A DNA stretch of 64,000 bases, from contig JBBAEA010000001.1 in NCBI GenBank assembly GCA_041656175.1, forward strand, positions 7,559 through 71,558. The letters are read 5' to 3'. The notes under the pieces are model-generated. The model was not told the DNA's origin. It worked only from the letters and a program-made list of their open reading frames with translations, and made no database searches. The translations under genes and the position numbers were made by a program. Origin of the DNA: Bradymonadales bacterium. Its GTDB lineage: Bacteria; Myxococcota_A; Bradymonadia; UBA4248. Of the stretch, positions 146 through 61,891 are shown piece after piece (position 1 is the stretch's first letter; each line of letters starts with the position of its first letter).

Positions 146-288
146 GTGGGGGAGTGCCCCCTACGCGCGGGCTTCCTCGTAAATATCACAATTCGCGCCT
201 TATTTTGTGCGCTGGATGGCATGCATTCCATCCAGCGCACAAAATGCGCTCATTGTGATATTTCCTCGGCGATCCCGCGCTACCCCCC
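146..288. repeat. MITE-like element, family 1 (GGGGG-N-CCCCCTACGCGCGGGCTTCC ... long internal palindrome ... GGCGATCCCGCGCTACCCCC)
   Basis: Terminal GGGGGagtgCCCCCTACGCGCGGGCTTCCTC. Internal hairpin with an ~18-bp stem TTTTGTGCGCTGGATGGCATGCATTCCATCCAGCGCACAAAA. Terminal CCTCGGCGATCCCGCGCTACCCCCC. Confidence 0.85.
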
Positions 289-590
289 AAAAAACCAAAC
301 TGAGTTCGAACAAGCCAAGATAGCCTTCCACTCTTTACTCTAGCTGCTATTTCACTGCTTTTGCATTTAGCAAAGTTTCCCTAAGTTGATAGCATTTTGG
401 GGTTTTGCTTCCTACAAAAGTTCTCATTTTGCAAAAACTTGTGTCGTTTTGTGAAGTTAACTTCACTATTTCTAGCCGTGCAAAGGTCTCATTTATGGAC
501 TTTATTTTTGACCTTCGCTCGACTTTACTGAGCTTACGCTAAGGTTTTTGATTGTTTTTTTCATGGTTCAGAGCGTGTCTAGGAAAATTT

Positions 591-2276
591 TTAGCGTTGT
601 TGGTAGCCGCTACGCCGTCGTAAGACTAAGAGCATGCTAAGCATAAGTGCTAAGAAAAACGCAAATTTTGCAGGCAATCGCGTGCGATGATGGATTTGGC
701 AACCACAACTATGCGCAATAAGCATTACATCGGCGAGCTCGCCTTCTTCAATGATGACATCGACTTCTTCGCCGCTTTCGCTGTCTATGCAAACACCGTC
801 TTCGTTACAATCTGAACCTTGCGGACAGGTGCCACAAACACCACCGCAACCATTGTCGGCGCAAGAATTCTCAGCGCATTGGGGTACACATACGCATTGA
901 CCTTCAGCGTTACAGCCTAAACCGTCTTCGCACTCTCCACAGCTACCGCCGCAAGCATCGTCACCGCATGTTTTGTTTTTGCAATAAGGTTTACATGGGC
1001 GACAAAAACCGTCTACACAGGATTCTCCCGTTTCGCAGCTACCACAACTTCCTTCACAACCATCGGATCCACAATACTTCCCATTACAATCTGGTATGCA
1101 ACTGCAGCTTCCCTTTATACAACTAGAACCTTCAGAACACGTACCGCACAATCCACCACAACCGTCGCCTCCGCAATTCTTACCCTCACAGTTGGGCTGG
1201 CATTTGCATTGTGCATCGACACATTCAAAACCTGTATAACAACTACCGCAAGTTCCACCACAGTTGTCGGGACCACATTCCTTTCCATCGCAGTTGGGCT
1301 TACACACGCATTGACCAGCACTGCAAGTATGCGTTGCCGGGCAAGTGCCGCACGTGCCACCGCAAGCGTCATCACCACATGCTTTTCCCGAACACTGTAC
1401 TTGGCACACGCACTGACCGGCGCTGCATAAGTGGTTTGCGGGGCAAGTTCCACAGCTCCCCCCGCAACCGTTTGGGCCACAGTTTTTGCCCGAGCACTGC
1501 GGTTGACAAATACATTGTCCAGAGCTGTTACAGTTGTGGTTTGCGGGGCAATTTCCACAGCTACCTCCGCAACCGTTTGGGCCACAGCTTTTGCCCGAAC
1601 AATTTGGAGTACACTCGCATGTTGGAGCTGGTAGGCCAAGATAAGCACCTTGGCTGACCCAGTAAGTGAGCGAACCACCGCAACCTGGAGTTGCTTTATA
1701 AGGGTCATCGTTACCATAGTTAGGTACATTGACACCAAAATGCAGGTGTGGTCCCGTAGAGCAGCCAGAGCTTCCGACGCGTCCCAATTCTTGGCCACAA
1801 CTTACTCTCTGGCCTTTGCTAACCTTTACAGTGCCCTTTTTCATGTGGCAGTAGATGGTTTTCTTCTTGTCGTCATGCTGAATTTGCACGTAGTTGCCAC
1901 AAGATGTGGCAGCACCGCAGTGTTGATTTCCTTGAACTGAAGTTTGGCGATCATAATATCCATCGGCAGTTGCTATGACTACCCCTGGGGCGGCTGCAAC
2001 GATGGGACGGCTGCCATTGCTATCCATCCCCGCAAAGCCACCTATTCCGTAATCAGTTCCTGTGTGCTGGTCGTAGGTTTTATATTTACAGTTCCAATCT
2101 CGTGTTACGCCCCCACTTCGGTTGAGATCATAGTAGGCTGTAATGTAGCATCCACCGTAATTATTACACTCGCTTAGCGGCAAACGATACTGTTGCGCAA
2201 AGGTGGAGGAAGCCCATAAACTAAGGGCAAAAATAAAACATGTCGTAGCAAGGAGAAAGCGTAAATTATTCATCAT
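591..2276 (-). CDS. Secreted M23 (LytM-type) metallopeptidase with ~10 tandem Cys-rich modules and a MYXO-CTERM-like C-terminal tail
   Basis: N-terminal signal peptide (MMNNLRFLLATTCFIFALSLWASSTFA). M23 motifs HxxxD-like (QHTGTDYG) and the SGCSTGPHLHF Zn-binding histidines. About 10 repeats of a ~36-aa module C-x-P-x-C-x-G-K-x-C-G-x-x-G-C-G-G-x-C-G-x-C. The C-terminus SCGCQ + hydrophobic stretch + RRR resembles a MYXO-CTERM sorting signal. Confidence 0.7.
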   Translation of the reverse strand: MMNNLRFLLATTCFIFALSLWASSTFAQQYRLPLSECNNYGGCYITAYYDLNRSGGVTRDWNCKYKTYDQHTGTDYGIGGFAGMDSNGSRPIVAAAPGVVIATADGYYDRQTSVQGNQHCGAATSCGNYVQIQHDDKKKTIYCHMKKGTVKVSKGQRVSCGQELGRVGSSGCSTGPHLHFGVNVPNYGNDDPYKATPGCGGSLTYWVSQGAYLGLPAPTCECTPNCSGKSCGPNGCGGSCGNCPANHNCNSSGQCICQPQCSGKNCGPNGCGGSCGTCPANHLCSAGQCVCQVQCSGKACGDDACGGTCGTCPATHTCSAGQCVCKPNCDGKECGPDNCGGTCGSCYTGFECVDAQCKCQPNCEGKNCGGDGCGGLCGTCSEGSSCIKGSCSCIPDCNGKYCGSDGCEGSCGSCETGESCVDGFCRPCKPYCKNKTCGDDACGGSCGECEDGLGCNAEGQCVCVPQCAENSCADNGCGGVCGTCPQGSDCNEDGVCIDSESGEEVDVIIEEGELADVMLIAHSCGCQIHHRTRLPAKFAFFLALMLSMLLVLRRRSGYQQR

Positions 2277-3076
2277 TATTTCTCCTTTAAAGCTTCAGCC
2301 TTAGCGGTTTTAAAGTTAATCTTCCACCATTCTCCAGCCCCCGCGTCGTAGACCAAAGTATCATTATCTAAAAACCTCATACCCTCGGTATTGGCGACTA
2401 CGGGTACGAAGCGCGCCCCAGCAATATCACTCGGGGCTAGCCCTTGGTTCGTAATTTGTCGTAAACCCTCGCCGTTCGCATTGACGCCGTACCAAGACGC
2501 GATGCCGCTGCGAGTCGATATGAAATAGATCGCATCACCGTGTGGCGAAAAGATGGGAGTACTGTGCTGCCCATCGCCTTCAATAATAGTCGCAATTTTT
2601 TGCCCACTACGACTTTTGATGTACAAAGCGGAAGATTCCATATTGGGATCTAGCTGCGAAACTACAAAGCGCGAACCCAAGTTGTCGATAGCAAAATCGG
2701 CATAAACCTCTTCTGCAATAGTGGCGCCTTTGCTAAGATCCATAAGTTTTCCATCTTTAACAGCGAAGGGCTCATCTTTATCGTTAAAACGGACTCTCTC
2801 CGCGCGTTCAATAACGAGCTGTTTTTTACCATTCTTGCCGATAATATAATAATCAGACTTTACTCGTTCGGGGCCATATTCTAGCCTCTGTTGATCGCTT
2901 ACTTTGAGTAGGTGGCTACCATCGCGCAAAGTGGCCTGAATTTTTAACACTTTGCCCGGTACTAGTTGTGGGATCACGAGGTTCTCGGCATATGCCGACG
3001 AAGCTGCATCACTAAAGCCAAGCGCCAAACCCGCAATAAGCGCTGCGGTGAGAACAAAAGATAGTCTTAGACTCAT
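2276..3076 (-). CDS. Secreted PD40/TolB-like beta-propeller repeat protein
   Basis: Signal peptide. Repeats of the PD40 type (TPIFSPHGDAIYFISTRSG). Overlaps the start of the downstream M23 gene by 1 nt (TAATG), which suggests an operon. Confidence 0.45.
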   Translation of the reverse strand: MSLRLSFVLTAALIAGLALGFSDAASSAYAENLVIPQLVPGKVLKIQATLRDGSHLLKVSDQQRLEYGPERVKSDYYIIGKNGKKQLVIERAERVRFNDKDEPFAVKDGKLMDLSKGATIAEEVYADFAIDNLGSRFVVSQLDPNMESSALYIKSRSGQKIATIIEGDGQHSTPIFSPHGDAIYFISTRSGIASWYGVNANGEGLRQITNQGLAPSDIAGARFVPVVANTEGMRFLDNDTLVYDAGAGEWWKINFKTAKAEALKEK

Positions 3077-3106
3077 AAGATGCCTCCTCCTGTGCTAGGG
3101 AAACTC

Positions 3107-3270
3107 AGATTTATTTTGGGGCTCCGCCCCAAACCCCGCTAAGGGCGATAGCCCTTAGAACCCTTTTTTTGCGTACTGCTTGATTTGATTGACTTTATTT
3201 TAAACGCTCGCCTAGTTTTCCTTACTTTGCTCTAGTGACTTTTTGACCATTTTTGTATTGATCAGAGCGT
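3107..3270. repeat. MITE-like element, family 2 (TIR about CTCTGATTTAT/ATAAATCAGAG; internal hairpins GGGGCnnnnGCCCC and CTAAGGGnnnnnnCCCTTAG; AT-rich AAAATAAAGTCAATAAAATCAATA box)
   Basis: AGGGAAACTCAGATTTATT ... GGGGCTCCGCCCCAAACCCCGCTAAGGGCGATAGCCCTTAGAACCC ... TATTGATCAGAGC. Confidence 0.7.
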
Positions 3271-3473
3271 CACTAAGGAACTCATAGGTAAGTATGCTCA
3301 ACAACATAGTTCCCATTCTAGCAAACGCACTTTTCCAAACATCAGTGTAGCGAAGTTATAACTCAATTGCTAGCGATTTTTTGAACAGTTGTACAAAGGG
3401 CAGCAGCCAAAAAGCAAAACAAAATGACGGCAACACAATGATTACGAAAAGCACGCCATGGTTCATACAGCAA

Positions 3474-3494
3474 GGGCAGCTATGAACGCTGCCC
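3474..3494 (-). terminator. Candidate stem-loop immediately 3' of RNase J
   Basis: GGGCAGC-tatgaac-GCTGCCC is a 7-bp GC stem. On the minus strand it is followed by a short T-containing tract, so it is weak. Confidence 0.25.
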
Positions 3495-3499
3495 CTTGA

Positions 3500-5206
3500 T
3501 TATACGAATTCGAAGTGAACGATAACATGTGGGAACTTGCCCAATTTTTGTTTTATTATTTTTGCGGCTTTATGGCGTATAATCTCTTGCATATCGCCGT
3601 GCTTAGCCGAACTAATGATAGTTCGCTTAAGCTCATCCTGCATATCTTTGAGGAAGGATTTGTCGCTGCTAATGCCAAACTCCTCAATTCGCAGCTCTCC
3701 GCGCAATTGCTCATCTTTATTAAGCGCCCCCCCGACAAAGAGCATACCGTTGTGGCCTAAAACTTTTTTTTCGCGGGCGCAGTCGCGATCCATGCCATCT
3801 AAAGATTTACCCACGACGTATCGTCGCGAGGGGATGAAGCTTTGCTCCAACTCGTGTCTGTCTGAGAAAAGTTTTAAAGTATAGCCTTCCTCTATGGTTA
3901 TTGAGCGATCTGGTGAAGGTTGCATATCATCGGCTAGCGCTTCATGCATGCTCAAGCGGCGGTAGTCGCCGTGTATGGGTACAAATATTTCGGGTTCTAG
4001 GAGTTCGATCAATAATTCGAGTTCCTTGCGACCGCCGTGTCCCGAGCTATGGAATACAGCGTCTCTTGGGTTAAAAAGGGAAGCGCCTTGACGGTAGAAG
4101 CCATCGACAATCGCGCCTACGCGCTTTTCGTTACCTGGGATCTGGCGAGCCGAGTAAATCAGTGTATCGCTAGGACGCAAGCGAATATTATTGTGTTTAG
4201 CCTGCGATAACTTGTAGAGGCTTGAGGCGCGCTCACCTTGGGAGCCCGAGATAACAACAACGATGTTTTCGCCAGCTTCTTCAATCTTGTGTTCGGCAAC
4301 GATTTCCATGTCGTTTGGCATGCTAAAATAGTTCAGCTCGCGCGCGATACCGAGGTTGGAGTTTAGCGAGCGCCCGCAAACGGCAATTTTGCGATTCGCC
4401 GCTGCCGCCGCTGTAAAAATAGATTGCAAGCGTCCGATGTTTGAAGCAAAAAGCGTGACAAAGATTCGTCCCTTTAACTTTGTAAAAACTTCTAACAAAT
4501 CGTTGTAAATATCGAGCTCACTGGCCATGGCGTCGTCGACTTCGACGTTTGTGCTATCGGCTAAAAGTACGCGCACTCCCTCATCACCAAGCGCTTCGAG
4601 TCTTGCTAAATTCGTCTTGGCGCCTGCCATCGGTGTGTTATCTATGCGCCAATCTCCCGAGTGTACGATGGTTCCCGCGGGTGTGTAAAAAGCGTACGCT
4701 ACGCTACCCGGAATAGAGTGGCAAACGTCGATGCACTCCACACGGCAATCACCCAAATTAAACTCTTCTTTGGTGTTGATCACATTAAACAATACGCTCG
4801 ATAACAACTCATGCTCCGTTAGCCTACGCTTTACGAAAGCTAGCGTAATGTCGGTGCCGTAAATAGGCATCTTCCCGCGAAAGCCTCTTTTTTGCATTGT
4901 TTTGAGTAAGAAGGCGATCGCCCCAATATGATCTTCGTGCGCATGCGTTAACACAATGCCGTCCAAAGGCTGTGTTTCCAGAACACTAAAATCTGGCGTG
5001 ATAAGATCCACCCCCCAGTCATCGTCGGCGGGGAACATGATGCCGCAGTCAACCAATATACGACTTTTCGCACTTTCTAGCAGCATGCAGTTCATGCCAA
5101 ACATGCCGCTTCCCCCGATCGATGTGATCTTGAGCAGCGCGTTGTCCTCTGTTTTCTCTCTTCCTTCCCTTTTCTCTTCTTCCATTATCTCTCTTGAATT
5201 TTGCAA
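3500..5206 (-). CDS. rnj: Ribonuclease J (beta-CASP MBL-fold RNA-metabolising hydrolase)
   Basis: HAHEDHIG metallo-beta-lactamase motif, beta-CASP region, and a length typical of RNase J. The N-terminal poly-E stretch may mean the true start is internal. Confidence 0.85.
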   Translation of the reverse strand: MQNSREIMEEEKREGREKTEDNALLKITSIGGSGMFGMNCMLLESAKSRILVDCGIMFPADDDWGVDLITPDFSVLETQPLDGIVLTHAHEDHIGAIAFLLKTMQKRGFRGKMPIYGTDITLAFVKRRLTEHELLSSVLFNVINTKEEFNLGDCRVECIDVCHSIPGSVAYAFYTPAGTIVHSGDWRIDNTPMAGAKTNLARLEALGDEGVRVLLADSTNVEVDDAMASELDIYNDLLEVFTKLKGRIFVTLFASNIGRLQSIFTAAAAANRKIAVCGRSLNSNLGIARELNYFSMPNDMEIVAEHKIEEAGENIVVVISGSQGERASSLYKLSQAKHNNIRLRPSDTLIYSARQIPGNEKRVGAIVDGFYRQGASLFNPRDAVFHSSGHGGRKELELLIELLEPEIFVPIHGDYRRLSMHEALADDMQPSPDRSITIEEGYTLKLFSDRHELEQSFIPSRRYVVGKSLDGMDRDCAREKKVLGHNGMLFVGGALNKDEQLRGELRIEEFGISSDKSFLKDMQDELKRTIISSAKHGDMQEIIRHKAAKIIKQKLGKFPHVIVHFEFV

Positions 5207-5341
5207 GTTATTCTCTTTTTTCCTCGCTCGTGTTGAGCGTTCTATGGGTTAATAATATTTTCTTACTAAGTTTTAGCATGTGCTAAAGCAGCCAAAGCTC
5301 TCGTAGCAGCACAACGCAACGGGGCGGCATTCATTAAATTA

Positions 5342-5491
5342 GGGGGGTAGCGCAAGATCACCCGCAGAATCGGCATCTGAGCGCATTTTTTGCGCTGGAT
5401 GCGCGGATTGAGCGCATACAGCGCAAAAAATAGTGCGCGAAGCCGCCGATTATGCGGGAAGCTTGCGCGTAGGGGGGCAATGTTGCCCCCC
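5342..5491. repeat. MITE-like element, family 1 (subtype with the GCGCATTTTTTGCGCTGGATGCGCG...CGCATACAGCGCAAAAAAT core)
   Basis: Shares both termini (GGGGGGTAGCGCAAGATCACCC ... GAAGCTTGCGCGTAGGGGGGcaatgttGCCCCCC). Nearly identical to the copy at 48842-48990. Confidence 0.85.
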
Positions 5492-5530
5492 ACCAAAAGA
5501 CAAAAAAAACGTGTAAAATCAATGCCTCAC

Positions 5531-6847
5531 TTATTCATCATCGTCGCTTAGAGTTGCCTCGGCTTTGTGCTTCACAAAGACTTGTGCGATGCGGAATCGC
5601 TCCATGGCGGTGACGGTGTAGCTAAACTCGCCTTCTTGTACTTCGTCGTGGATTTTGGCGACGCGGCCGAGTTTTTCCATGATAAAGCCGGAGACGGTGT
5701 CGGAGTCGGCTTCGATGTTGGCGGTGCCAAGGTATGAGAATAGGTCGCTTAGGAGCGTGGCACCGTCGACGATGTAGCCGTCTTCGGTTTGTCTGATGTC
5801 TTCTTGGCTTTCGGGGTCAAATTCGTCGTCGATTTCGCCGACAAGTTCCTCGAGCACATCCTCGACAGTGACTAAGCCCGATGTGCCACCATATTCGTCG
5901 ACTACGATGGCCAAGTGCGAGCGTTGGCGTTGCAAGACTTCAAGGGCGGTGGAGATGTTGGCCGTTTCGGGGATGTAAACAGGGTCGCGGGTGAGTGAGG
6001 CGAGTGTGGCGGTGTCGGATGAGCGTTGTGCGGCGACCATGTCTTTGAGGTGAACGAATCCGAGGATGTCGTCGAGGCCATCGCGGTAGAGAGGGTAGCG
6101 GGAGTGGCCAGCTTCGAGGGCGAAGTTGAGCGCTTCGTCAAGGGGCATGTCGACTTGCAGGGCGCAGATTTTTCCGCGTTGTACCATGATTTCGCGCGCG
6201 CTAAGGGCGGAGAAGTTAAAGACCTTATCGAGCAGCGTTCCTTGTTCCTGAGTGATGGTGCCGTCCTTACTGGAGTGCTGGGCAATGTTTCGCAGCTCTT
6301 CTGCCGATATACCCACGGCGTGGCCAGCTTCGACGGGTTGGACGTTAAATAGGCGCAAAACCCCGTTTGATGCTTTGGTCAAGACCCACATCACGGGCCT
6401 AAAGACCCAGTGAAAGATTTGCATGGGTAGTGCTACAAAGATGCTGACTTCGATGGGTTTTGCGATGGCAAGGCTTTTGGGCGCGATTTCGCCAAGGACG
6501 ATGTGGAGGAAGGACACGATCGAGAAGGCGATGACGAAACTGATGTAGTGCGACAGATCTTCTGAGATCGGTAGTTGCAACCACATAATAAAGGATAGCA
6601 GATGGCGATTGATGGCGGGCTCCGCCAGCCAACCCAAGCCAAGGCTAGCGAAGGTAATGCCTAGTTGCACCGCCGATAGGTAGCTATCAACGGTGTGTAG
6701 CACATCAAGGACGCGACCTGCTCCGCGGTTGCCGCCCTGCTTGAGAACCTCCAGTTGCGATGCTCGAACGCGTACAAGGGCAAATTCGGCTGCCACAAAA
6801 AAACCGTTTGCCAAGAGCAATAAAACCACTAAAACTATTTCAAACAT
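5531..6847 (-). CDS. CNNM/CorC-HlyC family membrane protein (DUF21 + CBS pair + CorC_HlyC)
   Basis: N-terminal TM DUF21 region, a CBS pair, and the C-terminal transporter-associated domain. This is the hemolysin-family architecture. Confidence 0.8.
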
Positions 6848-6898
6848 ATGTGTATTTTAAGAAAACCCCCCGCCCTTTTGGGATAAACCCCAAAGCAA

Positions 6899-8248
6899 TT
6901 ATAATATATAGCGTCCTAAGTCTTCATCTTCAATAAGATTCTCGATGTGCTTGCGAACGTAGTCGGCATCGATAACGACTTTTTGCGCTTGCATTGAGCA
7001 GGCGTCAAAGCTGAGTTCATCGAAAACGCGTTCAATCACCGTGTGTAGTCTACGCGCGCCGATGTTTTGCATGCGCTCGTTCGCCTTTGCCGCCGCATCG
7101 GCCATCGCCTCTATCGCGTCATCGCTTACCTCGACGTCGAGGCCTTCGGTTTTTAGTAGGGCGATATACTGCTTAACCAAGCTGTTGTGCGGTTCGCGCA
7201 GAATGCGCACGAAGTCGTCTCGCGTTAAGTTATCGAGCGTGACCCGAATCGGGAAGCGCCCTTGTAGCTCGGGGATGAGATCGCTGGGCTTTGAGACGTG
7301 GAATGCGCCTGAAGCGATAAACAGGATGTGATCTGTTTTGATAAAGCCGTACTTTGTCTTTACGGTTGAACCCTCGACGATGGGGAGCAGATCGCGCTGC
7401 ACACCTTCTCGTGAAACATCGGGGCTTCGGCCACCATCACTATGGTTTGACGCAATTTTGTCAATCTCGTCAATGAAGATAATTCCCATTTGTTCAGCGC
7501 GTACAAGCGCTTGTGACTCCACCGCCTCGTTGTCTATGGCGCTGCTAGCCTCTTCGGTTTTGAGCAGATTGAGCGCTTCAGCGATTTTCATTCGGCGTTT
7601 TCGCGTTTTCTTGGGCATAATGTTAGAAAAGAAGTTTTTCATCGAATCTTCCATCTCATTCATGCCATCGTTGCCCTGTGGATTGAAGAGGCGGAAACTA
7701 GCGCCAGCTTTATCGGCAACCGATATTTCGACGTATCGCTCGTTGAGAGCCCCGCTCTGTAGCAGTTCCCTAAGTTCTTCATCGCTAGCGCCTTGGGCGC
7801 CAGAGCCGCGCTCTTCTTGGATCGCGGCAATGATCGCATCCTCTGCCGCTCGCATCGCTTGCTGCTCAACGCGCGCCATCGCTTCTTCTTGCACGAGCTT
7901 GTAGGCCATCTCGACGAGATCCCTAACCATGCTTTCGACGTCACGTCCGACGTAGCCCACCTCCGTAAACTTGGAGGCCTCCACCTTTATAAAGGGCGCA
8001 TGGGCCAAGTTGGCTAAGCGCCGTGCAATTTCGGTCTTGCCCACGCCGGTGGGGCCGATGAGCAAAATGTTTTTGGGCGAAATTTCGTCTCGCAAATCCT
8101 CTGCAACCTGCTGGCGTCGCCAACGATTGCGTAGCGCAATCGCGACAGAGCGTTTAGCGGCATTTTGGCCGATAATATAGCGGTCAAGCGCCTCAACGAT
8201 TTGGACAGGACGCAGGTTCATCTGCTTTTGGTGCTGTGCATTCGACAT
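6899..8248 (-). CDS. hslU: ATP-dependent protease ATPase subunit HslU
   Basis: Walker A GPTGVGKT. Full-length similarity to ClpY/HslU. Sits directly downstream of hslV. Confidence 0.95.
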   Translation of the reverse strand: MSNAQHQKQMNLRPVQIVEALDRYIIGQNAAKRSVAIALRNRWRRQQVAEDLRDEISPKNILLIGPTGVGKTEIARRLANLAHAPFIKVEASKFTEVGYVGRDVESMVRDLVEMAYKLVQEEAMARVEQQAMRAAEDAIIAAIQEERGSGAQGASDEELRELLQSGALNERYVEISVADKAGASFRLFNPQGNDGMNEMEDSMKNFFSNIMPKKTRKRRMKIAEALNLLKTEEASSAIDNEAVESQALVRAEQMGIIFIDEIDKIASNHSDGGRSPDVSREGVQRDLLPIVEGSTVKTKYGFIKTDHILFIASGAFHVSKPSDLIPELQGRFPIRVTLDNLTRDDFVRILREPHNSLVKQYIALLKTEGLDVEVSDDAIEAMADAAAKANERMQNIGARRLHTVIERVFDELSFDACSMQAQKVVIDADYVRKHIENLIEDEDLGRYIL

Positions 8249-8261
8249 AATAATACTCTAC

Positions 8262-8813
8262 CTAAAGTTCTTCGGCTACGGAGGCGATGGTTTGGCAAAC
8301 GATGTTTTCGTTGGTGTAGATGCAGAGGTCTGCGGCGATTTGCAACGATTTTTTAGCAATCTCCTCGGCGCTCAATTGCGTATTATCCATCAGCGCGTTG
8401 GCGGCGGCGAGTGCGTATCCCGAGCCTGATCCGATGGACATAACGTTTTTGTCGGGGCTAAGTACATCGCCAGATCCCGATATTGTGAGGGTGATATTTT
8501 TATCGGCGCAGAGCAGCATCGCTTCGAGGCGGCGCAAGATCTTGTCTGTTCTCCAGTCCTTGGCCAACTCAACGGCTGCACGCATCAAGTCGTTTTGGTA
8601 CGCCGATAACTTCGCTTCTAACTTCTCAAAGAGGTTTAGCGCGTCCGCCGTCGAACCAGCGAAACCTACCAAAACTCGTCCTCCCGCAAGACTACGTACC
8701 TTGCGCGTTGTGTGCTTAATCGCGATATCTCCTAGTGTCACCTGCCCATCCCCCGCCATGGCGACAAAATCGCCGCGCCGAACGGCAAGTATGGTTGTGC
8801 TACGTATCTTCAT
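8262..8813 (-). CDS. hslV: ATP-dependent protease subunit HslV
   Basis: Begins with the TTI Thr active site after Met, has GDGQV, is 183 aa, and sits in an hslVU operon. Confidence 0.95.
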
Positions 8814-9153
8814 GAGTGGCTCCTTTTTGTGAAAAATAGCGCTCTGCTTTGCGGCAAAACGCCAAAGCGAATTTTAATCACCAGAGCAACAAAGTGAAGC
8901 AAGAAAAACTGGGATTCTATGTTTAAAAGCGCAATAACAAAAACGAACCGTTTTTAAACCTACTAGCCCTAAGCCACGATGCTTTGAAGCCACTTCACCC
9001 GTTACAAAGAACTATCCGCACGTCATTCATGCTAAGACCAAGTTTACGGACGTCGCTTCTTCCCTATAAGCCAAAAGCCCCCTGCTCTTACAGGAGGCTT
9101 ATTGAACGTTTACACAACGATACGGATTTTTTCAAAATTCCGCGAAGCCACAA

Positions 9154-9789
9154 CTAGCCAAAAACCTTCAGTCGCTTCTCAATATCCGCATCCCCTCGCT
9201 CGCCTGCTGCTTGGACGATTTTGCCAAACGGCATCTGCGCTAGCAATGTCCAAGTTTCCGAAACGCCCCAGCGCTTTTTCACTTCGTCATCAATGAGCGG
9301 GTTATAGTGTTGTAGCGACGCACCAATGCCGTTCTCCGCAAACGCTACCCAAACTGCGTACTGCAACATACCGTTTTCCTGCAAAGCCCATGGTGGGAAG
9401 TTTGCCGCATACAACGGATATGCATCCTGTAACCCCTTGGTTTTGGCTTCGTCTGTAAAGAACAAAACAGTGCCTCGACCCGCCTTAAACGACGCAATCT
9501 TTGCCTCCGTTTGGCTAAACTGCTCCGCTGGTACCAAGGGTTTTAAGGTGTTTAGCACAATATCCCATAGGGCTTCGTGCTCTTGGTCTAAAAGCAGAAC
9601 CACTCCCTGCGTTTTCGAATAAAAAGCCGATGGCACTTCAGCCAATATATCACTCACTAATTTTGTAAGCTGCTCTTTAGTATAGTCAATTTCGTCGTTT
9701 ATCGCGTACTGCGTGCGTCGCAAGCCAAACAATTTTACGCTTTCATTCTTCATCGTTATCTCCCGTAAAATCCAATTCATATCGTGCAC
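9154..9789 (-). CDS. Nitroreductase-family-like protein (probable start at internal Met, about 9753)
   Basis: RRTQYAI motif near the N-terminus, similar to the RRS-R-F nitroreductase signature, and the C-terminal HYNPL...W pattern. The similarity is weak. Confidence 0.4.
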   Translation of the reverse strand: MHDMNWILREITMKNESVKLFGLRRTQYAINDEIDYTKEQLTKLVSDILAEVPSAFYSKTQGVVLLLDQEHEALWDIVLNTLKPLVPAEQFSQTEAKIASFKAGRGTVLFFTDEAKTKGLQDAYPLYAANFPPWALQENGMLQYAVWVAFAENGIGASLQHYNPLIDDEVKKRWGVSETWTLLAQMPFGKIVQAAGERGDADIEKRLKVFG

Positions 9790-9952
9790 AGCAAGTGCTG
9801 CCCTAGCAATGTAATACTATGCGATTTTTTGGCAAGCTAAAATTACTTTTGCGTACTCAATGCGTAAAACCGTGAACTACTCTCATAATGCAGACAGCTA
9901 CTAGGAATACGCTGATTCATTCGATATGCTTGCTTTTTTCTTTTGTGGGGGA

Positions 9953-10050
9953 AGTATCCCCCTACGTCGCAACCCCGCGCTGTGCGCGGGTTTGCGCCTA
10001 CCCCCTCCGCGGGGACACCCCGCGACGCCCCGTCCAGTTTTTGGCCGTAA
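9953..10050. repeat. MITE-like element, family 1 short subtype
   Basis: GGGGGaagtaTCCCCCTACG ... CCCGCGCTGTGCGCGGG ... GCGCCTACCCCC. Related to the copy at 38596-38730. Confidence 0.7.
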
Positions 10051-10164
10051 TAGAGCTTTGCGCTTGCCCTACCCGCGCTCCCCTTCCCAACAGAGAGCAT
10101 AGCCCCCCGTAATGCCCTCACAGACGCGTCTTCAAAATAAAGCCCATAAAATCAATGCGCCAAC

Positions 10165-19637: not shown

Positions 19638-20219
19638 TTAGTTAAGACTAAAAGCAGCCACCATATCTGTGTCGATCGACCAGTTGTCGTCGAGTTTTTG
19701 GTTCAAAATGATGACAACGCGCTTGCTATCGGGAGTCCAAAATGCGTTTTTGATGCTAACGGCGGCGTATTTTGTTTTGGCGGTGTTGGAAAAAACCGTA
19801 GCATAACCCAAAGTCATAGATTGATCCCCCGCGCTTAAGGTTAGTTGCAAGTTCTCACCAATGACCTGGCCACCGAGTGTGTAGCCAGCAGGTGCCACAA
19901 AACCCGCAACGCCTGTTTGCGATATGGCGTAGGGTGCAACAGCGGGGCTTTGGAGTGCTTTTTGTAGGTTAATGCCCTGCAGCGGTACAACCAGTGTTGG
20001 GCCAGTTCCGCCTATTTTGTAAATGACGAGACTGTGGCCTGAGAGCTTGCTTCCCTGCACAACGGCGTAAAAATCGGGGTTAACGCCAAAGCCAACGAAT
20101 TCCATGGTGATTTTATCGGCATCTTGCGCGGATGCTTCGTGGTATGGGAAAAGGTTGACCAAAAAGACCAAGCAAAACGCTCCGATTAGGAGCATAAAGG
20201 TTTTGAAACGTCCACTCAT
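19638..20219 (-). CDS. Hypothetical exported protein
   Basis: Start at the internal Met preceded by a GGAGG RBS. Signal peptide MSGRFKTFMLLIGAFCLVFLVNLF...ASAQ. No recognised domain. Confidence 0.4.
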   Translation of the reverse strand: MSGRFKTFMLLIGAFCLVFLVNLFPYHEASAQDADKITMEFVGFGVNPDFYAVVQGSKLSGHSLVIYKIGGTGPTLVVPLQGINLQKALQSPAVAPYAISQTGVAGFVAPAGYTLGGQVIGENLQLTLSAGDQSMTLGYATVFSNTAKTKYAAVSIKNAFWTPDSKRVVIILNQKLDDNWSIDTDMVAAFSLN

Positions 20220-25774: not shown

Positions 25775-25921
25775 GGGGGGGCAAGCCCCCCTACGCCCGA
25801 GCCTCACGCCTGCATTCGCTAAAAGCTGCAAAATAATTTGCACCGTCTTGGCTGTGCGCCAAGCCAGTGCAAATTATGCATCTTTTGTGAATGAAGGCGC
25901 GGGGTCTCGTGCTACCCCCCG
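25775..25921. repeat. MITE-like element, family 1 (divergent core)
   Basis: GGGGGGcaaGCCCCCCTACGCCCGAGCC ... internal palindrome GCAAATTATGCA/TGCAAAATAATTTGCA ... GTGCTACCCCCC. Confidence 0.75.
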
Positions 25922-26975: not shown

Positions 26976-27165
26976 ACGGTTTCCAAGAAGGAGAAAGCAA
27001 GGCTTCGAGTTTTATACGCACATGTTCGCCTTTTGCGCAATAATGTTCAATGCTTTTTGCGATGCGCCTTGTTTTGTTAGGACAAGTCCTTGTCACTGCA
27101 TAGAGTCGAGGACTTAAAGTCCGTGCGCTACACGAATATATCACTTGCTCAGTCTGTTGGGTAGG

Positions 27166-27312
27166 AGGGGGTAGCCCAAGATCGCCCGATAAATTCGCCC
27201 GTATATGCATTTTATGCCTTGGTTTGGCATAGCCAAAACAAGGCATAAAATAAAGCAGATACAGGCGAATTTTGAGGGAAGCTTGGGCGTAGGGGGAAAC
27301 TTCCCCCTACGC
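27166..27312. repeat. MITE-like element, family 1 (divergent core)
   Basis: GGGGGTAGCCCAAGATCGCCCGAT ... palindrome TTTATGCCTTGGTTTGGCATAGCCAAAACAAGGCATAAA ... GAGGGAAGCTTGGGCGTAGGGGGaaacttCCCCC. Confidence 0.8.
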
Positions 27313-38595: not shown

Positions 38596-38730
38596 TTTAT
38601 TCTGCTGGGGGGACAACCCCCCTACGCTCAAACCCGCACTGTGTGCGGTTTTGCGCTACCCCCCGAGCGGGGCTTGAACGCCTGCGGCGTTCCGCAGCGC
38701 CCCGCAACGCCCCCCGCGCTTCGCGCGATA
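38596..38730. repeat. MITE-like element, family 1 short/GC-rich subtype, inserted between the MFP and RND genes of the efflux operon
   Basis: GGGGGGacaaCCCCCCTACGCTCAAACCCGCACTGTGTGCGG...GCGCTACCCCCC plus a GCCTGCGGCGTTCCGCAGCGC hairpin. Confidence 0.75.
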
Positions 38731-47090: not shown

Positions 47091-47284
47091 TGAGAGAGCT
47101 TTTTTTTCGTATTTTCAGCCTAAAAACTGTAGAATCTTGAGGGAGCTACTGTTTTATTTTATTTTTGCCTAATTTTGTGCGAATGTTGGCCATGCACTTG
47201 TGTAAGCGTTTTTTCGCTTCAAGGAATGATTTTGTTGTTTTGAAATCACACAGGTCTTTCTGATTTGTGCCACCTTGCAAGTCG

Positions 47285-47518
47285 TTGGTTTAGACGGGTT
47301 TTGGACGCTAGCCCAATAAATCAGAGCTTCCTTAGGGAGTCTCTGATTTATGCAAAAACAGTAGGGGGCATCTTTCAAACCTGCCCCTGATTAAAATGAC
47401 AAAAGCCTGGCGAATTTTCAAAATAAAGTCAATAAAATCAATACCCTACACACAAAACGGGTTCTAAGGCCGATAGCCCTTAGACGGGCTTTGGGGCGCT
47501 AGCCCCAACAAATCAGAG
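47285..47518. repeat. Family 2 elements: a 3' fragment plus a full copy in tandem, immediately downstream of lexA
   Basis: ...AGACGGGTTTTGGACGCTAGCCCAATAAATCAGAGC then TTAGGGAGTCTCTGATTTATGC...GGGGGCATCTTTCAAACCTGCCCC...AAAATAAAGTCAATAAAATCAATA...CTAAGGCCGATAGCCCTTAGACGGGCTTTGGGGCGCTAGCCCCAACAAATCAGAGC. Confidence 0.75.
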
Positions 47519-47523
47519 CTTTT

Positions 47524-48815: not shown

Positions 48816-48841
48816 GTTTTTTGTGGCTGTTAAATGATGCA

Positions 48842-48990
48842 GGGGGGGTAGCGCAAGATCACCCAAAGAATCGGCGATTTAGCGCATTTTTTGCGATGGA
48901 TGCGCGGAACGAGCGCATACAGCGCAAAAAATAAAGCGCTAAACAGCCGATTATGCGGGAAGCTTGCGCGTAGGGGGGCGTGTGCCCCCC
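48842..48990. repeat. MITE-like element, family 1 (near-identical to 5342-5491)
   Basis: GGGGGGGTAGCGCAAGATCACCC ... GCGCATTTTTTGCGATGGATGCGCGGAACGAGCGCATACAGCGCAAAAAATAA ... GGGAAGCTTGCGCGTAGGGGGGcgtgtgCCCCCC. Confidence 0.9.
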
Positions 48991-49239
48991 ACAAAAAATA
49001 GATACATGCGCGTAAAAGCGAAATTCGATTAATCCGCGCAAAGCCCTCGCCTTGCGAAAACGTTGAAGCTAGCTTATGAGTTTGAGCGCTAAAGCTTCGA
49101 TGCTTCTTCACCGCAAGCGCTTGCATCTGTGAAACTTTGGAACTTGTGCAGTTTAATTTTTACAGAATAGTAACAATTATTGACCTTGCACAGCGCTGCT
49201 GATATATGTATGCGTTGGGGAGGGTTTTGGAGCATAGCT

Positions 49240-51151: not shown

Positions 51152-51376
51152 AGGGGGCTTTTTGCCCCCTACGCGCGGGCTTCCTCGCAAAATGTGACAA
51201 CGAACGCTTTATATTGTGCGCTGTATTTGCTAGTCGCGCATCCAGCGCACAATATGCGGTTCGTAGCACATTTTGTGGAATGTGTGCCAATCCATGGCAC
51301 ACAGCCCTGCGGGCCGCCTGCGGCGTTCCCTTTCGACTTCCATGTCGAAACGAGGCGATCCCGCGCTACCCCCCCC
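51152..51376. repeat. MITE-like element, family 1 long variant (about 225 bp) with an extra internal hairpin
   Basis: GGGGGctttttgCCCCCTACGCGCGGGCTTCCTC ... TTGTGCGCTG.../...CAGCGCACAA ... TTCGACTTCCATGTCGAA hairpin ... GGCGATCCCGCGCTACCCCCCCC. Confidence 0.85.
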
Positions 51377-51513
51377 CGGTATCAGCGGCTAGCATCATCG
51401 CTTTTGCCGAGGTTACGGGGGCTTTTTTTTATGCTAAAGACACTGAACTTCCCTAAAGAGGCAAAGGGGATTGGGGAGCTAACTGTAAGATCTATAGTTC
51501 AGGACATTTCATT

Positions 51514-53784: not shown

Positions 53785-53799
53785 AAAATGTGAAGGATG

Positions 53800-55275: not shown

Positions 55276-55311
55276 TTGGCTAGGATTAGCAGCGAGGGGG
55301 TATAAAAAACA

Positions 55312-56953: not shown

Positions 56954-57102
56954 GGGGGGTAGCGCGGGATCGCCTCCGTAAAATGCGTAATGAACGCATA
57001 TTGTGCGGTGGATGCGCGACTAGCAAATACACCGCACAATATTTTGCGTTCATTATCGCATTTTAGGAGGAAGCCCGCGCGTAGGGGGGCGTTTAGCCCC
57101 CC
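56954..57102. repeat. MITE-like element, family 1
   Basis: GGGGGGTAGCGCGGGATCGCC ... palindrome AATGCGTAATGAACGCATATTGTGCGGTGGATGCGCG...CACCGCACAATATTTTGCGTTCATTATCGCATT ... GGAGGAAGCCCGCGCGTAGGGGGGcgtttagCCCCCC. Confidence 0.9.
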
Positions 57103-58778: not shown

Positions 58779-58791
58779 CGAGGGTTGAGCT

Positions 58792-61698
58792 TTGAGATGT
58801 AAACACTGTAATGGCGAATTACCAAGCGAGCGGAAGCTGGACTTGTGCCCGCATTGCGAGAGACGTGTGGAGTTGGCTTCCTACACCGCCGACCCCAAGC
58901 AGGGGCTTGAGCGCTTGGAGCGGGAGAAGCTAAATTTTCTTAAAAAATCGTCGACTATCTCAAAGTATGAAGCGGAGAACATCAAGCGTTTTGCTGTCCC
59001 AGAGCGTAGAGACGAAGTTGAATTTACGGATTCATTCGATTTTGGCGGTCCCACTGAATTTAGCGTGGCGCCTAGTTTTGGTGCTACTGACGTATTTAGC
59101 GAATTCAACGACTTTGCGCCAAGCTCTGATTTTGGCGCCAGCAGCGAGTTTGAGCATTCTACGCAATTTGGCCTTCCGCTTGCGGACTACCAAGATGGCG
59201 ATGAAGTCGAGGATGGGGAGTCGTACGATTTTGGGGGCGCTACGATCTTGGAGCCGGGCTTAGGTCTTGGGCTTTTTGCAGAAGATCAAATTCAAGAAGA
59301 AAACGCGCAGTCCCATGAAGACGGCGAGAGCGATCCAACGCAAACGGACTGGTATAGATTTAGTAAGCCCGCGGAGCTACTAAGCGAGGACGTCATCAAG
59401 GCGAGTTTGGGGCGAGGGAGTGTTGAGGCTACGCCGAGCTCTAGCCAAGAGCAGCTGTCTCGGGATATGACGACGCAGGAGAAGCTACCGTGGGCTTTGG
59501 ATCGCGCGAGTAAGGCACCCCAAAAAGCAGAGTCACAACGTTTTTCGGGAGCAAAAATTTTGCGTCCCGTCAAAATTGTTCCTCGAAGCCAGCGTGCAGC
59601 CAAAGACCTTGTACAAAAAGACCTTGTACAAAAAGACCTTGTACAAAAAGACCTTGTACAAAAAGACCTTGTACAAAAAGACCTTGTACAAAAAGAGACT
59701 AAAACCGACGAGGCGATGCGGAACTCTTTGTCGGCACTTATCCCAGAGGCGAGCGTAGAAGAATACGATGCGAATTTCACGGCACTGCAGTTCAAAGTCG
59801 CTAAAACTGCTGAGCGCGAGCCTGTGCGGCAAGAACTAGACGATACTGCCAAGCTGCGAAATAGCTCTCTTTCCGACATCGTAAGCGTAACAGAGCCGGA
59901 TTTACTGAAGGAGGGAGCCGATGGATTTAGGGCGAGCGTTCTAGAAATTGATGAAGCAGATTTGCAGGAAGTAGACGCTAGCGACGAATTTACGCACAGC
60001 AGCGAAGCCGAAATTGAACAGCTCTCCGAACTCAAAACACTCCTACCTGATTCTCCGGATTTCTCTGCCTCACTCTCTGATCTCAAAACCTTGCTCCCCG
60101 ATTCCGCCCAACCGCAACTCGCGCTGGAGCTGCCATACTCACCGCGCAAGGAATTAGTGCGTGTATCCGCGGCAGAGAGCGAGTTTTCTTTACAAAATGA
60201 CGACGCCGAAGCTGAAGAAAGTTCAGGTATTGAAATTCTCCCACAAGTTGAAGAAAAGCTACGTGCTAACCTAACTCCCTTCCTTTGGCTTGGGATCTTT
60301 GCCCTGTTATTTTTAGCATCCTTACTACTTCTTTACTTCCTCGGCTATTTTGACGCCCGTCGCGGACATGCTCCCAAAAGCAAAGAAGGGCAGCGCGTCG
60401 AGGTTGAGCAGGAGGAGCCAGAATCAAGATTGCCGCGCGAGGATATTTATAATCTCGAACGCGCTACGCGCCGAGCGTCTGAATCCGCACACAGAGCCTT
60501 TGATTTTCAAGCGCATCTCTTGCCCACCCTCATCAAAAAAGCGCAAGAGGCTCAAAACGCCGACGAGGCTATCTCGCACTGGGCCAATGCCCACGCGCTT
60601 TTCCCGCACTCTCTGCCCGCCATTCACGGTTTAGGCAATGCCCTCATTCAAGCCAAACGCTACCGCGAAGCGCGCGAGGCGCTACGGGCTTCGCAAGACG
60701 CCATCGCTTTTGACGAAGAGACCCAAGCCCTTGTCCTACGCGCTTTTCGCGAAGACCCCTATTTCATTTCGCCGCCAGAATACATCGACGACCTACGCTG
60801 GGATGTCATCGATCCCCTCGGCGGCGGTTCCACTCTAACCTTCAAAATCCAAAATAAGGGCAAAATCATCGCAGCCCTCAAACCCCTCCAAACTCGCCGA
60901 CAATCCAACTACCGCGCAGAAATTGCGGCGTGGCGCATCTGCGAATTGCTGCAATGCGACTTTAAAGTTCCGTATAACAAAGAAGTTCGCGTTGAAAAAT
61001 CCGTCTTTTTGACCATGTATTCACGCTCCACCTCCAGCCGAAAAGATAGCTATACCCCGCAATTGGTCGATTTAATCTGGACGCGCCACGATGGCAAGGA
61101 ATACTTACACGCCACCTTAAAAGAGTGGATCGAGGACTTTACACGCTTCCCCATCGAATATACTTCGCTTTGGAAGCCATGGCTTGCACAAAATTCAGCG
61201 CCCGCTCCAAGCGAACTTAAAAATTCACTCGCCCCTATTCAAGAGCGCAGCCGAATTAATCGCCTTTACGACAAAATCCTCGCCGCCGCCCCCGATCTCG
61301 ATACCCAAGGCTTAGCAGCCCAAATCGCACAAGTACTCATCTTTGACTACCTCACGGGCAACTGGGATCGCTTTAGCGGAGTGGAGGATTGGTGGGGCGT
61401 CAACTGCCAATTTGCCAAAAACAAAATTGTTTCAATCGACAATGGCGCCGCTTTCCAGCCATATTCAAACAAAAAGGTTCTGGAGCGTTTTCTACTCGCT
61501 CAAAAGTACGGCCGGCGCTTTATTCGCGACCTTCACGCTTTGGACAAAGACGAGACCTTGGCTTTGCTTTTCCCCGATGCAGATTCACGTGAACTGCGCA
61601 GTTATGAACAATTTTGGCGTCAGCGCAGCGCGCTTTTGGCGCATGTTGACTCGCTGGTCGAGCAATACGGCGCCGAAAACGTTTACGCCTTCCCCTAA
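58792..61698 (+). CDS. Zinc-ribbon / acidic disordered region with KDLVQ x6 repeat / single TM / C-terminal type II PI4-kinase-like (PI3_PI4-kinase superfamily) domain protein
   Basis: N-terminus CKHCNG...CPHCERR. A 15-bp tandem repeat x6 at 59602-59691. TM LTPFLWLGIFALLFLASLLLLYFLGYF followed by a basic stretch. The C-terminal domain motifs GGGSTLTFKIQNKGKIIAALKP, LIFDYLTGNWDRFSG and IVSIDNGAAF match the PI4KII signatures GSSGSYFVKD.GRIIAVFKP, LDYIIRNTDRGNDN and AIDNGLAFP. Confidence 0.6.
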   Translation: MRCKHCNGELPSERKLDLCPHCERRVELASYTADPKQGLERLEREKLNFLKKSSTISKYEAENIKRFAVPERRDEVEFTDSFDFGGPTEFSVAPSFGATDVFSEFNDFAPSSDFGASSEFEHSTQFGLPLADYQDGDEVEDGESYDFGGATILEPGLGLGLFAEDQIQEENAQSHEDGESDPTQTDWYRFSKPAELLSEDVIKASLGRGSVEATPSSSQEQLSRDMTTQEKLPWALDRASKAPQKAESQRFSGAKILRPVKIVPRSQRAAKDLVQKDLVQKDLVQKDLVQKDLVQKDLVQKETKTDEAMRNSLSALIPEASVEEYDANFTALQFKVAKTAEREPVRQELDDTAKLRNSSLSDIVSVTEPDLLKEGADGFRASVLEIDEADLQEVDASDEFTHSSEAEIEQLSELKTLLPDSPDFSASLSDLKTLLPDSAQPQLALELPYSPRKELVRVSAAESEFSLQNDDAEAEESSGIEILPQVEEKLRANLTPFLWLGIFALLFLASLLLLYFLGYFDARRGHAPKSKEGQRVEVEQEEPESRLPREDIYNLERATRRASESAHRAFDFQAHLLPTLIKKAQEAQNADEAISHWANAHALFPHSLPAIHGLGNALIQAKRYREAREALRASQDAIAFDEETQALVLRAFREDPYFISPPEYIDDLRWDVIDPLGGGSTLTFKIQNKGKIIAALKPLQTRRQSNYRAEIAAWRICELLQCDFKVPYNKEVRVEKSVFLTMYSRSTSSRKDSYTPQLVDLIWTRHDGKEYLHATLKEWIEDFTRFPIEYTSLWKPWLAQNSAPAPSELKNSLAPIQERSRINRLYDKILAAAPDLDTQGLAAQIAQVLIFDYLTGNWDRFSGVEDWWGVNCQFAKNKIVSIDNGAAFQPYSNKKVLERFLLAQKYGRRFIRDLHALDKDETLALLFPDADSRELRSYEQFWRQRSALLAHVDSLVEQYGAENVYAFP

Positions 61699-61750
61699 AG
61701 CCCAGAAAACATGATGAATTCAAGCCATAAAGATTTCTTTTTTGGGGTAG

Positions 61751-61891
61751 GGGGAAGTTTCCCCCTCGCGCGGGCTTCCCACAAAATCCGCTTAGCGCCG
61801 CGTTATTTTATGCGTCGTTCTCGCTTTACGCTCGACCACCGCATAAAATGCGGCGCTATGCGTCTTTTGCGCGTGATCCCGCGCTACCCCC
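61751..61891. repeat. MITE-like element, family 1, overlapping the annotated 5' end of the downstream lipoprotein ORF
   Basis: GGGGGaagtttCCCCCTCGCGCGGGCTTCCC ... palindrome TTATTTTATGCGTCG.../...CGCATAAAATGCGGCG ... GCGTGATCCCGCGCTACCCCC. Confidence 0.85.

Follow-up and report, generated by a model that had tools for sequence, protein, structure and literature searches.

A dense family of REP-like nested-palindrome DNA repeats in a Bradymonadales genome

Introduction

What are the GC-rich nested palindromes that recur between the genes of an uncultured member of the Bradymonadales, and how did they come to be spread there? The question is raised by a 64-kb stretch of DNA (positions 7,559 to 71,558 of contig JBBAEA010000001.1, assembly GCA_041656175.1; hereafter the window) from this predatory-type bacterium of a Myxococcota-type lineage. 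An initial annotation, made from the letters of the window alone, had recorded a dense family of such elements (family 1) and had likened it to repetitive extragenic palindromic sequences (REPs), bacterial interspersed mosaic elements (BIMEs) and miniature inverted-repeat transposable elements (MITEs). Family 1 is real: its nested-palindrome repeats, of the REP/BIME/MITE class, are interspersed densely and throughout the genome, and its hairpin is maintained at the level of DNA, not RNA. The reading that we tentatively prefer, at a probability somewhat below one half (about 0.45), is that the copies are REP/BIME-like, GTAG-tagged, non-autonomous DNA repeats spread through the chromosome of this species and its close relatives, possibly moved at C|TAC junctions by a HUH enzyme of the REP-associated tyrosine transposase (RAYT) type.

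Copy number and spread

The family was first delimited by two conserved 20-nt termini, CCCCCTACGCGCGGGCTTCC and GGCGATCCCGCGCTACCCCC. With up to 3 mismatches allowed, each terminus matches 9 times in the window, against 0.00 and 0.02 matches, respectively, expected from dinucleotide-preserving shuffles, which bears out the shared termini of the initial annotation; the two combine into 9 elements. A profile built from 8 copies, and searched with nhmmer over the window and further loci, was alone in finding a tenth full-length copy, which is diverged (25775-25920), and a listing of all G5-loop-C5 hairpins added two copies with a short body (9947-10005 and 38607-38664). The window thus holds 12 copies, 10 long (about 141-225 bp, typically ~145 bp) and 2 short-bodied, or one per 5.3 kb, divided equally between the + and − strands (6 each). 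The density and the occurrence in both orientations had both been read correctly, as had the total of 12, but two of the copies belong to a short-body sister family. Likewise, the maximum length of 225 bp does occur (copy 51153-51377) but is due to a separate inserted element of ~75 nt.

Beyond the window, the search covered 56 metagenome loci of the same species (524 kb, one JGI sample), which were picked by a pattern needing both termini and none of which overlaps the window. Identical proteins in synteny are shared by the JGI sample of these loci, the JGI sample of the window and an ENA assembly; such agreement across three metagenomes indicates that all 0.59 Mb searched represent one species. 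NCBI proteins MFA56234xx and the contigs k141_555794 (ENA ERZ27247346) and Ga0591958_0000145 (JGI) also belong to it. Window and loci together gave 103 non-overlapping profile matches, ~90 of them outside the window; as each locus was selected for holding a copy, the unbiased density is that of the window only. Copies with 98-99% identical bodies sit in unrelated flanks, and the family is therefore not a local duplication. It also occurs in two related species: a relative whose GlmM is 79% identical (L066) carries a copy at its contig end, and a metagenome-assembled genome (MAG) of 45% GC (L081) carries long and short copies. The latter came to light through a profile search of a copy-encoded pseudo-peptide in a set of 5.8 billion proteins, in which only three predicted proteins matched. 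Few copies genome-wide, a lack of conserved termini or a single local duplication, each of which the initial annotation had held to speak against its family, are thus the opposite of what was found.

More distant relatives at 55-64% GC have no family-1 copy in about 20 kb each, and the viral contigs searched gave no match. A scan of genome contigs with one degenerate terminus pattern returned at least 5 matches, those listed all lying in unrelated GC-rich genomes. A literature search retrieved nothing on palindromic repeats in Bradymonadales, nor on RAYTs or REPINs (REP doublets forming hairpins) in Myxococc*. Family 1 is thus new as a family though familiar in kind, and its lineage had no such family described before.

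Two observations on assemblies belong here. The short-read (Logan) contigs L008, L009, L073, L074 and L076 start or end within copies (window positions 15071, 25805, 33852, 51279 and 57008/57050), as is to be expected where a repeat is of high copy number. In the L081 MAG, the copies at 2893-3106 and 7001-7214, 4.1 kb apart, are identical, and the identity extends into the flanks by at least 45 nt on the 5' side and 30 nt on the 3' side; this pair is a segmental duplication or an assembly artefact rather than two insertions.

Anatomy of a copy

On the strand used here for description, a copy consists of a T-rich tract, a small hairpin (G5-6, loop, C5-6), the trinucleotide TAC, a 115-nt imperfect hairpin of three tiers (the body), TA and a run of C5-6. 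The T-rich tract (~10-14 nt) is degenerate, with 0.3-1.2 bits per position and the consensus TTTTT(T/G)(G)T. The small hairpin measures 16-22 nt, and its inner stem and loop are hypervariable, with 52 loops in 90 copies, AAGTYT being the commonest. In an alignment of the 96 full-length copies with usable flanks (A2, out of the 103 profile hits), the T, A and C columns of TAC are 90-100% conserved. The body ends in GCGCGGG...CCCGCGC, a perfect 7-bp terminal inverted repeat that co-varies with AAG/CTT variants, and is flanked on both sides by a C-TAC direct repeat. Past the terminal C-run the sequence is random, and the two outer flanks of a copy are unrelated to each other.

On the opposite strand, the same copy reads G5-6, GTAG, the 115-nt hairpin, (C)GTAG, a small G4-5/loop/C5 hairpin and an A-rich tail (ACAAAA). 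The tetranucleotide GTAG here stands directly 5' of both hairpin feet, as GGGGG-GTAG-CGCGGG... and GCGC-GTAG-GGGG-loop-CCCC.

Conservation of the hairpin as DNA

The initial annotation held that the sequence of the central hairpin varies while its structure is conserved, and the alignment of 96 copies upholds this. RNAalifold finds 33 consensus pairs in A2, 30 of them with compensatory double changes. Of the cells of the alignment, 96.5% are paired; the figure falls to 79.5% in shuffles and to 31-44% in a control in which partners are slid against each other. Cells changed on both sides number 496 against 125 in shuffles, and none of 500 shuffles reaches any of the observed measures.

The covariation that had been expected of a folded RNA is therefore strong, but it is of the Watson-Crick kind only, which makes it a constraint on DNA. 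One-sided changes that keep a pair occur in only 29 cells (relative to the commonest pair), and among unpaired cells there are 43 G-T, 28 A-C and 56 C-T, so that G-T is no commoner than other mismatches. As an RNA would tolerate G-U, this points either to a constraint on a Watson-Crick DNA hairpin or cruciform or to the copying of one arm from the other. Pure arm-to-arm copying is opposed by two irregularities that are conserved and strand-specific, namely a T·C stem mismatch kept in 85 of the 96 copies and an asymmetric internal loop, CTT opposite CGAT, near the stem base. As single-stranded DNA, copies fold at -50 to -61 kcal/mol (z -10 to -12), either strand equally. Rfam 15 gives no match over the whole window at the gathering score. 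Taken together, the hairpin is maintained at the DNA level, not as RNA.

A role of the copies as terminators, which had also been suggested, did not hold up. Each copy has its T-tract on the 5' side of the hairpins and, on the opposite strand, an A-tract on the 3' side, so neither strand resembles an intrinsic terminator; a scan of 20 kb (window 1-20000), which contains three full copies, placed no terminator-like site on any of them. The identification as intrinsic terminators was accordingly rejected.

Independent assortment of the small hairpin and the body

The initial annotation had treated each copy as a single element, whereas the small 5' hairpin assorts independently of the body. Pairs of copies with 98% identical bodies carry unrelated small hairpins and, over all copy pairs, small-hairpin similarity correlates with that of any body segment at r 0.04-0.08 only; its correlation with equal length of the 3' C-run is r 0.28. 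Linkage is tight between both arms of one tier (r 0.90, 0.67 and 0.81) and loose between adjacent tiers (r 0.15-0.5). The run lengths of a copy match, as 5/5/5 or 6/6/6, with C-runs that are equal at the proximal and terminal positions (5/5 or 6/6), and where the loop is AAGTYT, the terminal C5 is followed by a T in 27 of 30 copies. All four combinations appear in 33 of 55 comparisons of variable base pairs, which implies that reassortment or recurrent pair flips are frequent. The short body, too, carries a small-hairpin head, drawn from the same repertoire of loops, and almost all G5-loop-C5 small hairpins in the data set have a body attached. No apical, left or right part of a body was ever met outside family-1 copies; nested insertion of independent tiers into each other's loops was dropped as an explanation, as the tiers never occur alone elsewhere.

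Genomic context and orientation

Only 3 of the 96 copies lie inside long open reading frames (ORFs). The statement that all are intergenic was thus essentially right, the copy at 61750-61891 overlapping the annotated 5' end of an ORF. With respect to the copy, flanking genes are co-directional sense in 27 cases, co-directional antisense in 18, divergent in 20 and convergent in 11. Where an upstream gene reads into the T-tract side, the G-run starts 7-60 nt past the stop codon, and in at least one case (L013) the T-tract of the copy is that of a canonical terminator hairpin. Most copies are single; the 5 close pairs (<400 bp) are all tail-to-tail (+ then −), with spacers of unique sequence.

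The strand with GTAG is the locally G-rich strand in 65 of the 96 copies (p 7e-4), and in 55 of 88 (p 0.025) once coding-strand skew is removed. Such a polarity has been reported for elements acting on the lagging-strand template (PMC3333891), and the bias in family 1 suggests the polarity expected of elements of this type.

Mode of spread

The enzymatic step of the reading that we prefer would be carried out by a RAYT/IS200-type HUH enzyme of the single-tyrosine (Y1) class, presumably encoded elsewhere in the genome. Copies would be processed as single-stranded hairpins, broken and joined at the C|TAC junction on either side of the body. Bodies would then move between small-hairpin sites, while the small hairpin and the 3' C-run would remain together as an outer unit, and an excised circle would carry the junction ...CCCGCGC|TACGCGCGGG... 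Effects on neighbouring genes, such as protection of mRNA 3' ends or supply of a start codon, would be secondary. Exchange at two C|TAC junctions would explain both the uncoupling of the body from the small hairpin and the linkage of that hairpin to the C-run. In E. coli, TnpA(REP) binds single-stranded REPs, its binding and cleavage need GTAG and a stem mismatch, and it cleaves at C|T, one site being CC|TAC within CTAC, the complement of GTAG (PMC3333891). In family 1, the near-invariant GTAG 5' of both feet, the conserved T·C and the asymmetric loops are what would be expected of a single-strand hairpin recognized by a protein.

Several results weigh against this reading. Both GTAG tags lie on one strand, so the E. 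coli scheme of REP and inverted REP (iREP) on the same strand does not map directly, and the right junction is GC|TAC instead of CC|TAC. The bias in orientation is of moderate strength, and GC skew stands only as a proxy for the direction of replication. A search for empty targets (G5-loop-C5-TAC-C4) found none, its single match being part of the copy at 61750, and no free body was seen. Three strains that are 99.8-100% identical display no insertion polymorphism at any copy over the whole window and a further 20 kb. Searches for the enzyme covered 0.9 Mb of the species and its relatives, ~0.66 Mb of it non-redundant and perhaps 10-15% of a genome. In this minority of the genome, and hence as a weak result, phmmer with E. 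coli TnpA(REP), IS608 TnpA and Sulfolobus TnpA as queries (verified against PDB 4ER8, 2A6M and 2EC2) returned no Y1/HUH transposase below E 0.1. Eight ORFs with a HUH...Y motif are ordinary enzymes by Pfam; all-versus-all clustering of multi-copy ORFs gave only a tandem-repeat artefact, Ser/Thr kinases and EGF/FGE-sulfatase paralogues, with no transposase; and the ORFs between inverted copies are housekeeping genes. The associated transposase for which the initial annotation had proposed to look was thus not found in these ~0.66 Mb.

One transposase-like match was seen in all, a fragment of a PD-(D/E)XK nuclease family transposase (Pfam PDDEXK_2, E 9e-12) at the contig end of a same-species locus (L082 3-269, − strand), which does not adjoin a family-1 copy.

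Turnover of sites is slow but real. In the strain comparison over the window, indels occur only in unrelated tandem repeats. In L066, on the other hand, the intergenic region orthologous to that of copy 51153-51377 has no copy, and GC-hairpin modules follow glmM where the window has none.

A classical cut-and-paste MITE, in which a DDE transposase moves the body GCGCGGG...CCCGCGC and duplicates (C)TAC or the C-run, with the small hairpin and T-tract as target DNA, is an unlikely alternative. It would account for the perfect terminal inverted repeats, the C-TAC direct repeat on both sides of the body, the equal proximal and terminal C-runs, the size of the copies and the uncoupling of body and small hairpin; the base after the terminal C-run also tracks the small-hairpin type, as though a single earlier site had been divided in two. 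However, the supposed duplication is identical at about 90% of copies, and a duplication that follows run length (5 or 6) is unlike the product of a fixed staggered cut. No unoccupied target was found among about 125 such hairpins, and palindromy is kept over the whole length, with conserved mismatches, and not at the ends alone. No insertion sequence (IS) or transposase with matching ends was found; in particular, no multi-copy transposase ORF was found in the loci, which represent an incomplete genome. No target-site duplication that varies from copy to copy, for which the initial annotation had also proposed to look, was found, the only flanking repeat being the constant C-run/TAC. The label MITE therefore fits in terminal inverted repeats and size, but is unproven in the strict sense, neither a variable duplication nor a transposase having been found in the DNA searched.

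It also seems improbable that there is no dedicated transposase at all, and that family 1 is an old family kept for a role in host DNA (nucleoid proteins, gyrase, or the punctuation of replication or supercoiling), homogenized by gene conversion via the 20-nt termini and with arms corrected by template switching. The extensive reassortment (all four combinations in 33 of 55 site pairs) and the linkage within tiers (r 0.67-0.90) as opposed to between neighbouring ones (r 0.15-0.5) would follow from such a process, conversion anchored in the conserved termini would give the same uncoupling with no enzyme, and the lack of insertion polymorphism between close strains, the lack of a transposase and a copy at a similar place in the relative with 79% protein identity would all be in keeping with it. 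Conversion, however, makes no new sites, yet 98-99% identical bodies are found in unrelated flanks and occupancy differs between related species. Arm-to-arm correction would moreover erase the conserved mismatches unless these were selected, and no type of intergenic context is free of copies, not even divergent promoter regions.

A more elaborate form of enzymatic exchange is quite unlikely. Here, family 1 would be a two-part cassette system of a kind so far undescribed among REPs, in which a hypervariable docking hairpin (T-tract, G5-6/loop/C5-6 and matching 3' C-run) receives interchangeable long or short palindromic bodies, swapped at two C|TAC junctions by a single-strand HUH-type enzyme. 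The rule by which the three G/C runs pair could be a sign of a conformational switch in such a reaction. If true, family 1 would be a cassette-like REP system, a vertically inherited replicator of the REPIN/RAYT type in a Myxococcota-related lineage.

Finally, it is very improbable that the copies are structured RNAs (small RNAs, or cis-acting stabilizers or terminators in 3' untranslated regions) kept by selection on RNA folding, since the facts that many copies must be co-transcribed, starting 7-60 nt past a stop codon, that the hairpins are very stable and that REPs are known to stabilize upstream mRNA (PMC3733652) are set against G-U pairs that are not favored over other mismatches, both orientations relative to genes (27 sense and 18 antisense co-directional, 20 divergent), a T-tract on the wrong side with no terminator-like site at the three full copies in window 1-20000, and no Rfam match.

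Comparison with known repeat systems

The reference systems for REP/BIME repeats and their RAYT or TnpA(REP) partners are those of E. coli, Pseudomonas and Stenotrophomonas (Nunvar 2010; Ton-Hoang 2012; Di Nocera 2013). REP families are typically tagged with GTAG, and composite structures of REP plus stem-loop exist in Pseudomonas (PMC3733652). Family 1 resembles these in the GTAG directly 5' of the foot of a GC-rich imperfect palindrome, in the conserved stem mismatch, in its mosaic organization and in a C|TAC junction similar to the iREP-II cleavage site. It is likewise extragenic and of high copy number (12 in 64 kb, 103 in 0.59 Mb), REP/BIME repeats amounting to hundreds of intergenic copies. 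A REP palindrome spans 20-40 nt, which the small hairpin (16-22 nt) fits and the main hairpin (115 nt) does not. The two GTAG-tagged hairpins of family 1, however, follow each other head-to-tail, a tandem layout that REPs reportedly show seldom or never; intergenic regions between divergent genes are not depleted of copies; and the host is a member of the Bradymonadales, with no RAYT found in the ~0.66 Mb searched. In BIMEs, REPs of alternating orientation are separated by defined linker motifs; family-1 copies are mostly single, and their close pairs are tail-to-tail but have unique spacers.

REPINs (Bertels and Rainey 2011) reportedly consist of two inverted REPs, with GTAG at the outer ends on opposite strands. 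Like a REPIN, a family-1 copy has a hairpin of ~100 nt or more that is kept by compensatory changes, and the family has the appearance of a replicating, vertically stable population of non-autonomous elements. Unlike in a REPIN, both GTAG of family 1 are on one strand (with CTAC twice on the other), and the long hairpin does not consist of two small-hairpin copies.

With MITEs such as Correia/NEMIS, ERIC, RUP and Nezha, family 1 shares a size of 100-250 bp, terminal inverted repeats, intergenic or intra-operon insertion and folding into a long hairpin. It differs from them in a flanking repeat that is constant, in an end that is a separate, uncoupled small hairpin, in palindromy over the whole length and in having no known parent IS. 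The palindrome-associated transposable elements (PATEs) derived from IS200/IS605, with their peel-and-paste transposition, are similar in having two same-strand hairpins with a conserved tetranucleotide 5' of each foot, no variable target duplication and an orientation bias relative to GC skew. In contrast to PATEs, the family has no conserved short target beside the 5' end of the GTAG strand, its hairpins are very unequal in size, and neither TnpA nor TnpB was found in the DNA searched. The build of family 1 is unusual; of its features, only the uncoupling of body and small hairpin might turn out to be new in mechanism.

Interspersed palindromic repeats shape genome architecture, can alter the expression of neighboring genes and fragment short-read assemblies, as seen here. 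The ~100 aligned copies, with unusually clean Watson-Crick-only covariation and conserved mismatches, form a good natural data set for telling the constraints on DNA hairpins from those on RNA, and also for finding the recognition code of the enzyme that moves such repeats. A RAYT-like gene, if found, would add a predatory and little-studied lineage to those with a REP/RAYT partnership, and the uncoupling would become a testable clue to how REP arrays diversify.

The copies in the window

The first full-length copy (148-288, + strand) has its T-rich tract at 136-147, followed by the hairpin GGGGG-AGTG-CCCCC, TAC, the 115-nt hairpin, TA and C6; it folds at -50 kcal/mol (z -10.2). The body of the full-length copy at 14959-15100 (−), ~19 nt past the upstream stop codon, is 97.5% identical to it. 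Between two co-directional genes, ~40 nt past the upstream stop codon, is a full-length copy of the AAG/CTT basal-stem subtype (5342-5491, −). The diverged full-length copy (25775-25920, +; nhmmer score 51.7, E 2e-14) has the basal stem GCCCGAG/CTCGTGC and the inner motif CCTC/GGGGT and escapes both terminus patterns; its subtype recurs in the other species, L081. The full-length copy at 27167-27307 (−) has the basal stem GCCCAAG/CTTGGGC. A further one (33719-33860, −) lies between convergent genes, 29 nt past the stop codon of an outer-membrane efflux gene, and the one at 56954-57102 (−) occupies the divergent region between a crp-like and an RNase G gene and folds at -56 kcal/mol (z -11.6).

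The short-body relative at 9947-10005 (+) has the same T-tract, the hairpin GGGGG-AAGTAT-CCCCC, TAC, a 30-nt palindrome (CCCGCGC-TGT-GCGCGGG), CTA and C5. The other (38607-38664, +; DNA fold z -3.7) lies between the membrane-fusion and pump genes of a resistance-nodulation-division (RND) efflux operon, antisense to both, where a copy had indeed been placed by the initial annotation. GC-rich hairpin modules directly follow both, one at 10006-10032 (GGGG-ACA-CCCC/GCGACGCCCC) and one of another family at 38665-38716. Modules of the form TC(A/T)xCG-GGGGG-loop-CCCCC-G(C/T)AACGCCCCC regularly follow short-body copies at many loci (e.g., L014 about 5500-5560 and L018 about 7270-7330). These GC-rich modules are probably the second family of the initial annotation, and together with family 1 they form BIME-like mosaics.

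Upstream of lexA lies the full-length copy at 48842-48990 (−); in L066, the corresponding place is also occupied by a copy, whose small hairpin is a different one. Of the repeats said to bracket lexA on both sides, this 5' copy belongs to family 1, but the 3' side has a different repeat: two copies of the form TTAGACGGG(T/C)TTTGG..GCTAGCCC..A(A/T)AAATCAGAGCTT lie 3' of lexA at 47255-47520, a region into which about 25 BLAST matches from other loci fall.

The full-length copy at 51153-51377 (+) is split at about 51278-51352 by an unrelated element of ~75 nt with three hairpins, TGTGTGCCA-ATCC-ATGGCACACA, GCCGCC-TGC-GGCG and TTTCGAC-TTCCAT-GTCGAAA. The same insert is found at the same internal position in L057 (about 7700-7775), and a related one at another position in L063 (about 3715-3772), a pattern suggesting that family-1 copies are landing sites of a second small mobile element.

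The full-length copy at 61750-61891 (+) overlaps the annotated 5' end of a lipoprotein ORF (61711-63159), as had been recorded. The annotated start at 61711 adds 49 residues, mostly encoded by the family-1 copy, and an in-frame ATG at 61858, in the 3' arm of the copy, would start a textbook lipoprotein signal peptide, MRLLRVIPRYPLRFFAQNFVYAILVLFACFSLLMIAG|C (to 61975). Judging from this reading frame, the copy may supply the start codon and the charged N-region of the lipoprotein. In addition, public gene callers predict hypothetical proteins of 69-98 a.a. that are largely translations of family-1 copies (window 48830-49126 and 26965-27246, both on the − strand; L081 2918-3127 and 7026-7235), and one reading frame, with the motif PLRAGFL, is open in 68 of the 96 copies. 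These ORFs are probably spurious. For annotation, it follows that gene callers put spurious ORFs of 70-100 a.a. on copies and may misplace at least one start codon.

Other repeats in the window

An intergenic block at 11933-12429 contains tandem arrays of a 55-nt unit (2.3 repeats, 100% match) and a 103-nt unit (2.4 repeats, 94%). It is rich in CACGAAA/TTTCGTG in both orientations, and its family is present in at least 8 same-species loci and in L081 (16309-16870); the JGI strain has one 103-nt unit more than the window at this block. Tandem repeats also occur in predicted coding regions, at 18420-18584 (27-nt unit, 5.3 repeats) and at 59602-59696 (perfect 15-nt unit, 6.3 repeats), the latter in the gene for a 968-a.a. 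tetratricopeptide repeat (TPR) protein. At both, the number of repeats differs between strains that are otherwise 99.8-100% identical.

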